Positions 8,514-15,901 of a DNA stretch of 64,000 nt are shown here, in pieces (the stretch's first letter is position 1; the number at the start of each line of letters is the position of its first letter). The stretch covers positions 1,152,001 through 1,216,000 of the forward strand of contig OZ242326.1 of the NCBI GenBank assembly GCA_965208325.1, read 5' to 3'. The notes beneath the pieces are model-generated. The model saw only the letters and a list, made by a program, of their open reading frames with translations, had not been told where the DNA came from and ran no database searches. Origin of the DNA: Candidatus Poribacteria bacterium. Lineage in GTDB: Bacteria; Poribacteria; WGA-4E; PCPOR2b. The translations under genes were made by a program, and so were the position numbers.

Positions 8514-11500
8514 ATGGAATCACGTTTTAAACGGCTCATTATTCTCGCCGCGGTATTGGCGGTCATCGCCGGCATTATCGCAATTTTCGTCAATATTTAC
8601 CCCAACGTACTTTGGTTTGATATGGTGGGCTACGTTTCAGTATTCACGGAAATTCTATTGACGAAAGTTGCATTGGGTGCTGCCGTCGGGGGGCTTTTTC
8701 TGGTCATCCTTCTCGTCAACCTCTATCTGATTTGGCGTTTCACTCCCTCCCGACTAAGCCCTACCCTTCTTGAATCAATCCCAATCAGCGGCGAATTCGA
8801 TTTCGATCTGCGCAAAATGATTTACGTAGTGCTGGCGCTTCTCGCCATTGCGTTTAGCGCCCTTATGGGATATACAGCGGCAGATCGATGGGAAATCGCT
8901 CTGCGCTATTTCAAAGCGGACGACCTCGCCTTTCAATCGGCCAGCCGCCTATCCGAAACTGTTGAAAGCGGCAACACAGATGTTTTAATTTCTCAGTTGG
9001 ATGTCGAAGCTAAAGGCTTAAAGGTAGGAGATAAAGTTGTTATTGAGCAGGAAAATCAAAGCCACCAGGCAAATGTCAATTCCATTAGCAGTGCTGGCAA
9101 CGGTAGAACCAAAATTACATTGAGCCGTCCTCTCGAGTTCACCACGACGGAAAAAGCCGTGTTAACCGCGGCTACCCGCGATCCAATATTCGATAAAAAC
9201 GTCAGTTATTACGTTTTCAGAATGCCGTTTGAACGCTTTATTTGCGGCAATTTAGTTGGATTGTTTCTGTTAATGACAATCTTTTCCGCGGTGCTCTACT
9301 TTTTTCACGGCTCTTTAATTGGCGATAATAACCGCTTCGATCCGCCGCGGCGCGTAAAGACACATCTCTTTTTGTTAGTCGGTATTACACTGCTGACTCG
9401 CGCTTGGAATTACCGCTTTACAATGTTTGACCTGCTGTACGCTACGAACGATGTTGTCCGCGGCGGCGGCGGATATGCAGCCATCCAAGCGCGGTTGCTT
9501 GTGCTGAAAATTTTGCTGGCGATTTCAATCATCTGTGCCGTAGTGTTTCTAATCAGCATCTTCTTGCGGCGAATCTCACCCGCTGTCGGTGGTGTTGTAA
9601 TCCTATTGATTGTTGGCTTCTTTGGCCAGGTCTATCCTAGCCTCATTCAAAGGCTAAAGGTCGAACCCAATAAGCAGGAGCTTGAATCCAAATACATTAA
9701 CTTTAACATAAAGGCAACTTTATTCGCTTATGATTTGGAAGATAACACCGTGACGGAAGAAGAATACCCCTTGACAGGCGAGTTATCCTACGAGCAGATT
9801 ACGAATGAGGAAAATTCCGCAGTCGTAAACAGCGTGCGGCTTTGGGATTGGCGTCCGCTCAGGCGTACATTTCGTCAATTACAAGAACTGCGGCGTCAGT
9901 ATGATTTTGCCGACGTAGATATTGACCGCTACCCAATGGAAGACGGCGAAGCGCGACAAGTGATGCTCTCAACTCGTGAGTTGGATTTGAACGAACTTCG
10001 AAATGAAGATTGGTATAAGCGGACCTACGTCTATACTCACGGTTATGGCGCCGTGATGAGCCCCGTTAATGAGATTGATGACGGAAAACCCAAAATGTAT
10101 ATTGAGGACATCCCCGTCAATTATGCAGCCGAATGGACGGATAATCGGTTTAATGCCGAGCCAGGACCGCGTATATACTACGGAGAACTCACACCGCATT
10201 ACGCAATCGTCCACCCAGGGCGTCATGACAAACTGGAGTTTGATTACCCTGAACAAGGGCAGGGCTATGCCAAATATTCGTACACGGGACAGGGCGGGGT
10301 TCAACTCGCATCATTCATGCGCAGGTTCGTTTACATGCTGAAATTTAACAATGAGCTGAAATTCATCCTACCAGGAGAAATTACATCTACTAGTCGGGTG
10401 CTCTACCATCGAAATATACAAGAGCGTGTTCAAAAAATCGCACCGTTCTTACGATTCGATAAAGACCCCTATGCGGTTATTCACAACGGCAGGCTTATCT
10501 GGATGATCGACGCATACACGACAACGAGACGTTATCCGTATTCCGCCCCCATGCCGGATGTGGTGCGGGCAACTATTGCGGAACGGCAGGGAAGACGCGC
10601 GGCAAGCCGAATCGTCGGCGGCGAACAACCGTGGGATGGAAACTATATTCGAAACGCTGTAAAAGTGACTGTGGACGCCTACGATGGCACCGTGAATTTC
10701 TATTTGATGAAGCGCGAAAACGACCCCATTGTAGAGTGCTACAACCGTATTTTCCCCGATCTCTTCAAACCATTTGACGACATGCCTGAAGATCTCAAAA
10801 GCCACATCCGTTATCCAACCACGATGTTCCTTATTCAGGCTCGGATGTATCAGGATTATCACATGAAAGACCCAACGACCTTCTATGCACAAGAAGACCC
10901 CTGGGAAATCGGTAAAGAGGTTTACGACACGACTGAGCGCCCACGTAATCAGCCTGTGGCGCCGCCTAGCCCATTCCCAACCCAACAAGTGAGCCCACAG
11001 CCGCTCTTGACAAATGAGCAAGAAGTCGCACCCTATTACGTTGTAATAAAACTGCCGGGCGAAGAACAGGCGGAATTCATGCTCATGCTTCCTTTCACGC
11101 CGAAGAGCAAGTTAAATCTCACGGCTTGGCTAGCTGCAAGATGCGATTTGCCGCAATACGGCCAACTGCTAGTTTATCGCTTTCCAAAAGGAAAACTTGC
11201 CCCTGGACCAATGCAGGTCGAAAATTTTATCACCCAAAAACCTGAAATTTCCGAACAGATTAGCTTATGGAATAGGGAAGGATCGCGCGTGCTGCGTGGA
11301 AATTTGTTAATTATCCCCATGCACAACGCCCTCTTGTACGTAGAGCCAATCTACATTCAATCGGAGAATGAGGAATCGGCAATTCCTGAACTCCGTCGTG
11401 TCGTCATCGGCTATAAAGAAAACGTCGTCTGGGGCGCGAGTTTTGACGAAGCCTTGGTCAAGATGTTTGGGAGAGCGGTCGCGTCGAGTTCGCCGCCGTC

Positions 11501-11714
11501 AGGGCAACCGGAATCTGGCGTACAGAAAAAAGACCTACAAAACGTATCTGGCCGCGCCACAACGCAAACCTTAATTTCAAAGTTGGCGAGAGATGCAAAC
11601 CAAATCTATCAACAAGCGGTAGACGCGAGACGGACGGGAAATTGGGCTGAATACGGGCGTTTACAAAATCTGCTGGAACAAACATTGAAGCAGTTGGAAC
11701 AAAATGCTAATTAA
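8514..11714 (+). CDS. UPF0182 family integral membrane protein
   Basis: VLWF, DPIF..YYVF, PNKQELE, VRLWDWRPL, DVDIDRY, YTHGYG, PRIYYGE, NYIRNAVK, HIRYP, LLYVEPIY and PELRRV motifs. Confidence 0.92.
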   Translation: MESRFKRLIILAAVLAVIAGIIAIFVNIYPNVLWFDMVGYVSVFTEILLTKVALGAAVGGLFLVILLVNLYLIWRFTPSRLSPTLLESIPISGEFDFDLRKMIYVVLALLAIAFSALMGYTAADRWEIALRYFKADDLAFQSASRLSETVESGNTDVLISQLDVEAKGLKVGDKVVIEQENQSHQANVNSISSAGNGRTKITLSRPLEFTTTEKAVLTAATRDPIFDKNVSYYVFRMPFERFICGNLVGLFLLMTIFSAVLYFFHGSLIGDNNRFDPPRRVKTHLFLLVGITLLTRAWNYRFTMFDLLYATNDVVRGGGGYAAIQARLLVLKILLAISIICAVVFLISIFLRRISPAVGGVVILLIVGFFGQVYPSLIQRLKVEPNKQELESKYINFNIKATLFAYDLEDNTVTEEEYPLTGELSYEQITNEENSAVVNSVRLWDWRPLRRTFRQLQELRRQYDFADVDIDRYPMEDGEARQVMLSTRELDLNELRNEDWYKRTYVYTHGYGAVMSPVNEIDDGKPKMYIEDIPVNYAAEWTDNRFNAEPGPRIYYGELTPHYAIVHPGRHDKLEFDYPEQGQGYAKYSYTGQGGVQLASFMRRFVYMLKFNNELKFILPGEITSTSRVLYHRNIQERVQKIAPFLRFDKDPYAVIHNGRLIWMIDAYTTTRRYPYSAPMPDVVRATIAERQGRRAASRIVGGEQPWDGNYIRNAVKVTVDAYDGTVNFYLMKRENDPIVECYNRIFPDLFKPFDDMPEDLKSHIRYPTTMFLIQARMYQDYHMKDPTTFYAQEDPWEIGKEVYDTTERPRNQPVAPPSPFPTQQVSPQPLLTNEQEVAPYYVVIKLPGEEQAEFMLMLPFTPKSKLNLTAWLAARCDLPQYGQLLVYRFPKGKLAPGPMQVENFITQKPEISEQISLWNREGSRVLRGNLLIIPMHNALLYVEPIYIQSENEESAIPELRRVVIGYKENVVWGASFDEALVKMFGRAVASSSPPSGQPESGVQKKDLQNVSGRATTQTLISKLARDANQIYQQAVDARRTGNWAEYGRLQNLLEQTLKQLEQNAN

Positions 11715-11744
11715 CCACTAACACCAAACATGGAGGTGACTCAA

Positions 11745-11999
11745 ATGGGACTCGACTGGAAACCGCGTCATCGGGATTTAGTCATTGGCGGCATTCCTTG
11801 GCTTGCCCGTATCACGGATAAAGCGCGCGCCAAATTGAACGGGACTATCGGCGACTACATTTACCCGTGACCAATGGATCAATCAGTATTCCTGGAGGAA
11901 TACAAGCTCACAGGCGACGAGTTTATTGAAATTGTAAAAAATAATCCGTCAGACGATGACATGATTGCTGCGATTCGGTCGCTGGCGAAAGAACAATAA
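11745..11999 (+). CDS. DUF5069-like small protein with in-frame UGA (predicted selenoprotein, 84 aa); absent from the ORF track
   Basis: RBS GGAGG at 11732-11736, ATG at 11745. Translation: MGLDWKPRHRDLVIGGIPWLARITDKARAKLNGTIGDYIYP-U(TGA 11868-11870)-PMDQSVFLEEYKLTGDEFIEIVKNNPSDDDMIAAIRSLAKEQ-TAA. It fills the whole gap between the UPF0182 gene and pheA. Confidence 0.82.
11886..11903 (+). promoter_or_regulatory. Putative bacterial SECIS element
   Basis: Perfect hairpin GTATTCC-TGGA-GGAATAC. The apical loop starts 22 nt after the in-frame UGA and has G in its first two positions. Confidence 0.72.
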
Positions 12000-12050
12000 T
12001 TCGAATTGCTATCGTAACAAGTGCATTACTCATGTTGGAGATGTCTATAA

Positions 12051-13115
12051 TTGAATCTGGCAGACTACCGAAATCAGATTGATCAACTTGACGATCAAAT
12101 CTTGGATCTCTTGCTTCAACGCGCGCGAATTGCCAAAAAGGTCGGAGACTTCAAAGAAAGCGCAAACACGGGGACTGTGTATGCGCCGCACCGTGAAAAG
12201 GAGATTCTGACTCGGTTGAAGGCGCGCAACAGGGATGGATTTCCACCCATTGCCCTCGAGAAAATTTACAAAGAGATTATTTCGGCTTGCCGATTTTTAG
12301 AAAAGCCATTGCGCATTGCATACCTCGGCCCCGTTGGTAGTTTTGGGCATGCCGCCAGCCTGCGCCATTTTGGCGGCTCGGCAAATTTCATTCCACAATC
12401 GCCTCAAACCGATATCTTCGTAGAGGTCGAAGCTAGCAGGGCCGATTACGGCGTGGTTGCAATCGAAAATTCCACATACGGTAGTGTGCGCGACGTTCTG
12501 GAAATGTTCCAGCACTCGCAGTTGCAAATTTGCGCCGAAATCTTCCTGCCAATCGATCACAACCTGCTCGCAAATTTTCCACTGAACGAAGTCGTTAAAG
12601 TTTACTCACATCCGCAACCCTTTGCGCAATGCAGAAAATGGCTTCATCAAAACTTGGAAGGTGTTCAACAAATTGAAGTCGCAAGCACGTCTGAGGCTGC
12701 GAGAATAGCCGCCGACGAACACGGTGCCGCGGCAATCGCTAGCAAGCTGGCAGCGGAAATCTATAATGTGCCTATATCCAACGCGTCAATAATGGACGAC
12801 CCAAGCAACACGACCCGCTTCCTTGTTATTGGATGGCACGCCGCGGAAAGAAGCGGAAACGACCGGACATCAATCCTTTTCGCAATTAAAGACAAAGTCG
12901 GTGCGCTCTATGAAGTCCTCAGAGTCTTGGAGCGCAACGGTATCAATATGAGCCGGATTGAATCCTTGCCTGCTCGAACAAAAGCTTGGGAATACGTATT
13001 CTTTGTGGATTTTGATGGACATGCCGAAGATGAAAACGTCCGAACCGCTTTAGACGAGATTGAAGAGCTATGCGTGCTCGTAAAAATCCTCGGGGTTTAT
13101 CCGTGTGCTTCATAG
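12051..13115 (+). CDS. pheA: Chorismate mutase / prephenate dehydratase (P-protein)
   Basis: N-terminal AroQ domain (RNQIDQLD), IAYLGP, IENSTYG, YSHPQ, NTTRF, and ACT domain SRIESLP...WEYVFFVD. Confidence 0.95.
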   Translation: MNLADYRNQIDQLDDQILDLLLQRARIAKKVGDFKESANTGTVYAPHREKEILTRLKARNRDGFPPIALEKIYKEIISACRFLEKPLRIAYLGPVGSFGHAASLRHFGGSANFIPQSPQTDIFVEVEASRADYGVVAIENSTYGSVRDVLEMFQHSQLQICAEIFLPIDHNLLANFPLNEVVKVYSHPQPFAQCRKWLHQNLEGVQQIEVASTSEAARIAADEHGAAAIASKLAAEIYNVPISNASIMDDPSNTTRFLVIGWHAAERSGNDRTSILFAIKDKVGALYEVLRVLERNGINMSRIESLPARTKAWEYVFFVDFDGHAEDENVRTALDEIEELCVLVKILGVYPCAS

Positions 13116-15816: not shown

Positions 15817-15901
15817 TGGGCGAGGAGGGATTCGAACCCTCACACCCGGTTATGGGCGATGGATTTTAAGTCCATTGTGTCTGCCATTCCACCACTCGCC
15901 C
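15817..15901 (-). tRNA. tRNA-Leu (TAA)
   Basis: GGGCGAGTGGTGGAATGGCAGACACAATGGACTTAAAATCCAT, then a long variable arm, then GGGTTCGAATCCCTCCTCGCCCA. Confidence 0.93.

Follow-up and report, generated by a model that had tools for sequence, protein, structure and literature searches.

A short-form DUF5069 gene of Candidatus Poribacteria with an in-frame UGA and a SECIS-like hairpin is predicted to encode a selenoprotein

Does the in-frame TGA at positions 11868-11870 end a very small gene, or is it read as selenocysteine (Sec) within a larger one? The window, by which we mean the whole stretch of 64,000 nucleotides that was analysed, comes from a genome of Candidatus Poribacteria, which are uncultivated sponge symbionts. 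A reading of the DNA made from its letters alone (hereafter the sequence-only reading) had placed a hidden gene in the gap between a UPF0182 gene and pheA, with a GGAGG ribosome-binding site, 41 codons, the TGA, 42 further codons and a TAA stop. All of these elements proved correct when the sequence was checked, and the location between the two neighbours is borne out by the ORF list together with Pfam. The analysis described here leads us to regard 11745-11999 as very probably a genuine selenoprotein gene, in which the UGA of codon 42 is read as Sec by ordinary bacterial recoding. The features on which the argument draws are as follows.

8514..11714, plus strand: UPF0182 family gene, the upstream neighbour, given for context only (ORF list; Pfam PF03699 matches the part covered in locus L021)
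11732..11736, plus strand: Shine-Dalgarno-like GGAGG, 8 nt ahead of the ATG at 11745, read directly from the sequence
11745..11999, plus strand: whole predicted selenoprotein gene, with 41 codons, UGA (Sec42), 42 codons and TAA; 84 residues, short-form DUF5069 (translated with TGA as U)
11868..11870, plus strand: in-frame UGA, predicted Sec in the motif YIYP-U-P (orthologue conservation and Cys alternation)
11886..11903, plus strand: SECIS-like hairpin, stem 11886-11892/11897-11903 (7 bp), loop UGGA 11893-11896, overlapping the codons V-F-L-E-E-Y
11997..11999, plus strand: true stop TAA (sequence, and translation with TGA as U)
12051..13115, plus strand: pheA-type gene, the downstream neighbour (Pfam CM_2, PDT and ACT, that is, chorismate mutase, prephenate dehydratase and ACT)

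A scan of 11500-12200 for promoters and terminators returned no matches, and a search for RNA sequencing runs that contain this stretch found none.

A bare in-frame stop, and nothing more, would fit a sequencing or assembly error, a recent nonsense mutation that has left a pseudogene, or an organism in which TGA is a sense codon throughout. The conservation of the codon argues against the first two. All 61 genomes of the order to which this one belongs, from 4 families and 15 genera, have a best match (64-99% identity) with a single in-frame TGA. Contigs from three other studies span 11868-11903, and the differences listed lie elsewhere in the gene, with none in the TGA or the hairpin. The TGA was at the same codon, in the context YIYP-TGA-P, in all 40 orthologue loci inspected, 6 of which also have TGA as the true stop of the gene. 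Across the phylum, 168 of 176 genomes contain a match (E <= 1e-8), and TGA was present in 149 of the 150 rows among the phylum-wide matches listed, with 28 further matches beyond these. Against TGA as a sense codon throughout, TGA terminates 387 of 1170 long frames in this genome, which is one contig of 4.7 Mb, and the TGA at 2513-2515 of the window terminates an ordinary ORF of 223 residues (1844-2515), as expected from the earlier claim that TGA is an ordinary stop elsewhere. Genome-wide reassignment of UGA as in NCBI tables 4 or 25 was not found: TGA is used as a stop, and tRNA-SeC (anticodon tca according to ARAGORN) is the sole carrier of tca among 49 tRNAs, so that tRNA-Sec alone reads UGA. 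The 61 genomes, the 149 rows listed, the 387 frames and the contigs of the three studies together refute error, pseudogene and genome-wide sense TGA, which we consider exceedingly improbable. Site-specific recoding rather than a changed code, as the sequence-only reading had it, therefore stands. One orthologue row (G152:C2:2362477-2362722) shows one TGA and one TAG; the TAG may reflect an alignment that overran the true stop.

The protein obtained by reading through the UGA is a member of DUF5069. Pfam DUF5069 (PF16798) matches residues 7-82, a range that spans U42, with E = 5.7e-15 and 56.1 bits, above the family's cut-off (gathering threshold) of 27 bits. Because these residues align only to positions 4-78 of the 133 in the profile, the protein is a short form without the C-terminal part found in the structure 3OMD and in paralogues of 140-150 residues. 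A phmmer search matched PDB 3omd_A with E = 2.8e-14, and the Cys of 3OMD was aligned to U42. Alignments of DUF5069 members, both short and long, show no variation in this Cys column, and the family motif is Y-P-C-P-x-D. The proposal that the gene belongs to DUF5069, with the TGA on the conserved Cys, was thus confirmed, and the profile match runs through both sides of the UGA. NCBIfam gave no family at E <= 1 for the read-through protein.

If the UGA were a real stop, the product would be a peptide of 41 residues, and the downstream half would be either a second small gene starting at ATG 11874 or an untranslated remnant. Standard ORF calling does split the gene in two, at 11730-11870 and 11874-11999, and truncated calls are found in databases (P0043, P0049 and P0056). 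However, purifying selection acts on the downstream half too, and in the frame of the upstream half: across 47 distinct orthologues, codons 1-41 had a dN/dS of 0.078 and the 33 codons that start with FLEE one of 0.139, and both alternative frames downstream contain stops in all 47 sequences. The Met at codon 44 (ATG 11874) is confined to this genus, with Q or A in most genera; most genera also have no start codon right past the UGA, with an in-frame ATG appearing only some 20 codons later. Furthermore, Pfam and 3OMD align as one domain through the UGA, and the orthologues that have a Cys codon at this position (poribacterial family f8) are single uninterrupted ORFs. The substitution pattern indicates that the second half is translated in frame with the first, and termination at the UGA appears very unlikely.

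The same codon alternates between TGA and Cys codons. Within the phylum, family f8 has a Cys codon in place of the TGA in each of its 8 genomes (TGC in 7, TGT in 1), and families f6, f7 and f9 have TGA. Among species-representative genomes, 472 relatives were found, and the best 80 of the 472 comprise 21 TGA and 59 TGC or TGT loci, numbers that are biased toward Cys forms outside the phylum by one of the two search patterns, which included Cys. All of these 21 TGA loci are titled Candidatus Poribacteria; the 59 TGC or TGT loci are from Chloroflexota, Bacillota, Planctomycetota, a Brocadiaceae, a Vampirovibrionales and two Poribacteria. Both TGA/TGC alternation and a conserved hairpin were looked for, and both were found, with the hairpin tracking the TGA forms as described below.

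A UGA that is translated could also be read as a standard residue, by a near-cognate Trp or Cys tRNA or by some other suppression, with the hairpin merely slowing termination. Public gene calls of the TGA forms show W at the site in 11 of 37 and in 4 of 16 sequences, but such calls come from software that applies a table in which TGA is Trp and are not measurements, and TGG occurs at the site in none of 137 distinct orthologue sequences. The UGA stands in for the invariant Cys of the family, the hallmark of Sec/Cys pairs. The genome also encodes a complete Sec pathway, in which tRNA-Sec is the only tRNA with a UCA anticodon, and selA is present in 164 of the 176 genomes of the phylum, including 7 of the 8 genomes of family f8. 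Translation of the UGA as a standard residue is, in our judgement, unlikely, and we prefer insertion of Sec.

The presence of selA, selB, selC and selD in the genome was checked, and all four were found with scores over the curated cut-offs (selD 376.8 bits, TIGR00476; selA 588.7; selB 373.5; tRNA-Sec 77.5). In family f5, neither selA nor the DUF5069 gene was found in any of the 3 genomes. Selenium insertion at the UGA and binding of SelB to the hairpin would follow the established bacterial pathway. In the proposed mechanism, SelD would make selenophosphate and SelA would turn Ser-tRNA(Sec) into Sec-tRNA(Sec). SelB carrying Sec-tRNA(Sec) would bind GUAUUCC-UGGA-GGAAUAC, 15 nt 3' of the UGA, and its delivery of Sec would compete with release factor 2, with translation continuing to the TAA at 11999. 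Sec would take the place of the family's single invariant Cys.

Several details of the Sec genes were noted in passing. The genes for selA, selB and tRNA-Sec are mutually adjacent on the minus strand at G000:C1:2041505-2044983 (L004, L005 and L013). The selD gene, on the minus strand at C1:4481278-4482201 in L001 (G000:C1:4479778-4483701), is itself a selenoprotein gene with one in-frame TGA near the N-terminus (KCAG-U-ASKL). A possible selD hairpin, GAUCC-GGG-GGAUC, was seen by eye 12 nt past its UGA; RNAfold did not choose it. In the window, a tRNA-like sequence at 15818-15901 on the minus strand matches the tRNA-Sec model with 42.5 bits against a gathering score of 47, and is probably an ordinary long-arm tRNA.

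The candidate SECIS element is a hairpin whose stem is formed by GTATTCC (11886-11892) and GGAATAC (11897-11903) without a mismatch and is capped by the loop TGGA. The stem begins 15 nt and the loop 22 nt past the TGA, exactly the spacings given by the sequence-only reading. The perfect 7-bp stem of that reading is right for this sequence, but does not extend to the phylum, where 7 bp is a feature of the genus and conservation is limited to a core of 5 bp, GUUCC/GGAAC; of 36 aligned sequences, 16 have 6-7 bp and the other 20 have 5 bp. The minimum-free-energy fold includes the hairpin. Its energy, -6.6 kcal/mol in isolation, is -8.1 in context; the value is -9.2 for a stretch of 45 nt and -4.2 kcal/mol for the 5-bp core alone. 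Structure alone proves nothing here, because the 71-nt fold had z = -1.32 against shuffles, of which 23 of 200 folded equally well. Fold energy was dropped as evidence, this z value not being significant, and it is the comparative evidence that raises the hairpin above chance. A search of Rfam gave no match at E <= 10.

The core GUUCC-UGGA-GGAAC hardly differs among the 36 distinct sequences of the alignment. Two changes were seen, one from C-G to U-G and one from U-A to U-G, and both still pair. There is so little variation in the five pairs of the core that the covariation stems from the two outer pairs, which vary on both sides (AU in 15 and GC in 3 sequences for one pair; UA in 14 and AU in 2 for the other) and are unpaired in 18 and 20 of the 36 sequences. 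The covariation score was beaten or matched by only 2 of 500 shuffles, and slid controls scored far lower; RNAalifold returned the 5-bp core only, with a covariation term of -0.13.

The letters of the hairpin encode F-L-E-E, so that constraints on the protein and on the RNA are confounded, and synonymous sites are what tells them apart. In 47 distinct orthologues, codon entropy at F, L, E and E was 0, 0.15, 0 and 0.15 bits, compared with 0.25-2.34 bits at 37 other conserved degenerate positions. The Leu of the hairpin is encoded by CTG in 46 of the 47, and other conserved Leu columns use 5-6 codons. That the synonymous sites of these four codons are frozen indicates a constraint on the hairpin at the RNA level. 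The motif TTC[CT]TGGAGGA[AG] was found in 71 of 73 distinct TGA forms versus none of 64 distinct Cys forms. FLEE also occurs in some Cys proteins (P0005, P0008, P0012, P0066 and P0069), which were compared as protein sequences.

The limits given for bacterial SECIS (bSECIS) elements in a 2026 catalogue of prokaryotic selenoproteins are a loop of 3-9 nt, a stem of 4-16 bp, a minimum free energy <= -7.5 kcal/mol, G in the first two loop positions and 16-37 nt from UGA to loop (PMC13188914). The hairpin lies within all of them, with a 4-nt loop (U-G-G-A) that starts 22 nt after the UGA, a 7-bp stem and, for a stretch of 45 nt, -9.2 kcal/mol. Falling within the limits proves little, because a loose version of them is also passed by 42 of the 64 Cys forms, mostly from G+C-rich Chloroflexota; the frozen synonymous sites and the restriction of the motif to TGA forms are the stronger evidence. 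Like the consensus bSECIS element, that is, the Zhang and Gladyshev model as summarised in the catalogue (PMC13188914), the hairpin lies within the coding region past the UGA and has a small loop with G in second place followed by another G; its stem of 5-7 bp and its distance of 19-22 nt from UGA to loop also agree with the consensus. Unlike the consensus element, it is very short and weak, having 5 bp and -4.2 kcal/mol in the majority of orthologues, and the same sequence of 14 letters is seen throughout the phylum as well as in a second clade. The fdhF element of E. coli has a GU-containing loop, unlike the UGGA loop here.

The genome was also scanned for further selenoprotein genes by means of a TGA followed by an NWUCC/GGAWN hairpin. 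Among 117 raw hits, 17 had open frames, and none was convincing besides the present gene. The scan missed selD because the frame upstream of its UGA is short.

TGA forms of the family were also found outside Poribacteria. When metagenome contigs were scanned with a pattern, at least 120 stretches were obtained, from which 80 loci were taken, and 19 of these encode the DUF5069 family. At least 11 loci with TGA belong to a marine clade with the pattern EFRPRSR...WLPR...YIYP-U-[GP]ADKKFLEELGI (metagenome loci L172-L244), and 10 of those 11 carry GUUCC-UGGA-GGAAC, the same letters as in Poribacteria. The marine locus L210 has, as judged by eye, a different 6-bp hairpin at the same place, AGCUUC-CUUGA-GAAGCU. 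A third clade (EWKPRGR) is represented by L229, a TGA form with an 8-bp stem and the loop GGA. The Cys relative L081 keeps a hairpin similar to that of the Sec relative L229, which could be due to either a recent switch or chance. The marine clade includes Cys members too: among 16 of its proteins, Cys is present in 8 and W in 4, and the remaining 4 are truncated. A quick tree requires at least six Sec/Cys changes, four of them forced by well-supported branches, although, being built from 63 rows and 92 columns, it is poorly resolved. Cys forms branch between Poribacteria and the marine clade that shares the 14-letter hairpin.

Prokaryotic selenoproteins have been assembled into 119 families and subfamilies in the 2026 catalogue, and PF16798 is absent from the families and subfamilies of its Table 1 (PMC13188914). 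DUF5069 is likewise not among the nine new deep-Sep families where these are named in PMC12013277, and a text search of the literature collection used here found no mention of it. Judged by that table and by NCBIfam, from both of which it is absent, DUF5069 is a family uncatalogued as a selenoprotein, and would add to the bacterial selenoproteins. The closest parallels are the DUF523, DUF1858, DUF3179 and DUF166 selenoproteins, which Table 1 of the catalogue presents as predicted, with a single Sec, domains of unknown function and Cys homologues (PMC13188914). The present case resembles these entries in having a UGA where homologues have a conserved Cys, a hairpin shortly after it and the Sec machinery in the genome. 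Unlike them, DUF5069 is a separate family without a CxxU or UxxC pair, in which the single Sec lies in the motif YP-U-P.

The structure 3OMD, of a protein of unknown function from Leptospirillum rubarum, has the same family and fold as the product of the gene, and its Cys aligns with U42. It differs in having 145 residues, a C-terminal extension and Cys, whereas the protein studied here has 84 residues, no extension and a predicted Sec. An AlphaFold model of the Cys homologue P0023 (pLDDT 84) consists of four helices, with the Cys immediately ahead of helix 2. Superposition of this model on 3OMD gave Z = 12.6 with an rmsd of 2.0 over 81 residues, and the next chain had Z = 3.5; the Foldseek match to 3OMD had a TM of 0.86. 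No structural neighbours other than 3OMD were found with Foldseek or VIA-align, and a Protein Atlas search with the Cys homologue returned only DUF5069 clusters, with scores of 0.82-0.85. The charged residues R, D, K, R and D are invariant in the family. Because of the Sec/Cys pair, its position ahead of a helix and these invariant charged residues, the Sec or Cys would be the reactive selenol or thiol of the protein, which may be a small thiol- or selenol-dependent redox protein or one that handles chalcogen or metal. The Sec/Cys pair at an invariant Cys would thus mark this residue as chemically active and give a handle on DUF5069, for which a solved structure is at hand in 3OMD.

Taken jointly, the results raise the possibility, which we put forward tentatively and hold to be less than probable, that DUF5069 is a new class of selenol/thiol enzyme or a chalcogen carrier with an orphan fold, that its short form is a near-universal poribacterial selenoprotein (168 of 176 genomes), and that the Sec gene and its own SECIS element were passed on as a unit, by inheritance or transfer, with at least four to six switches between Sec and Cys. 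A near-universal poribacterial selenoprotein would bear on the use of selenium in sponge holobionts.

Public gene calls of the TGA forms are systematically mis-annotated, with Trp at the Sec site or an end at YIYP (P0002-P0021 and P0058-P0062). Among the cluster representatives listed, 12 of 150 stop right at query residue 41. A gene cut at residue 41 or given Trp is an annotation error to be corrected in public data.

The neighbourhood of the gene was considered as a clue to its function. Of 15 poribacterial loci sampled, 13 have pheA after the small gene and on its strand, Sec and Cys forms alike, and at two poribacterial loci (L025 and L027) a WD40-repeat gene is in its place. Because pheA was beside the family gene in none of 14 loci of other phyla, the adjacency is read as inherited synteny within the phylum rather than as a sign of shared function, and the neighbourhood was set aside as a clue. 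Paralogues were of no more use in this respect, since the tandem-repeat proteins found in related Poribacteria carry DUF5069 and no other Pfam domain. These have two or three DUF5069 domains in tandem, in proteins of 294 and 434 residues (L161 1147-2451, minus strand; L162 908-1792, plus strand). The present genome has a second, distant DUF5069 paralogue of 148 residues (L166 1447-1893; G000:C1:656303-656593), which matches the family with 27.8 bits and has Cys at the aligned position.
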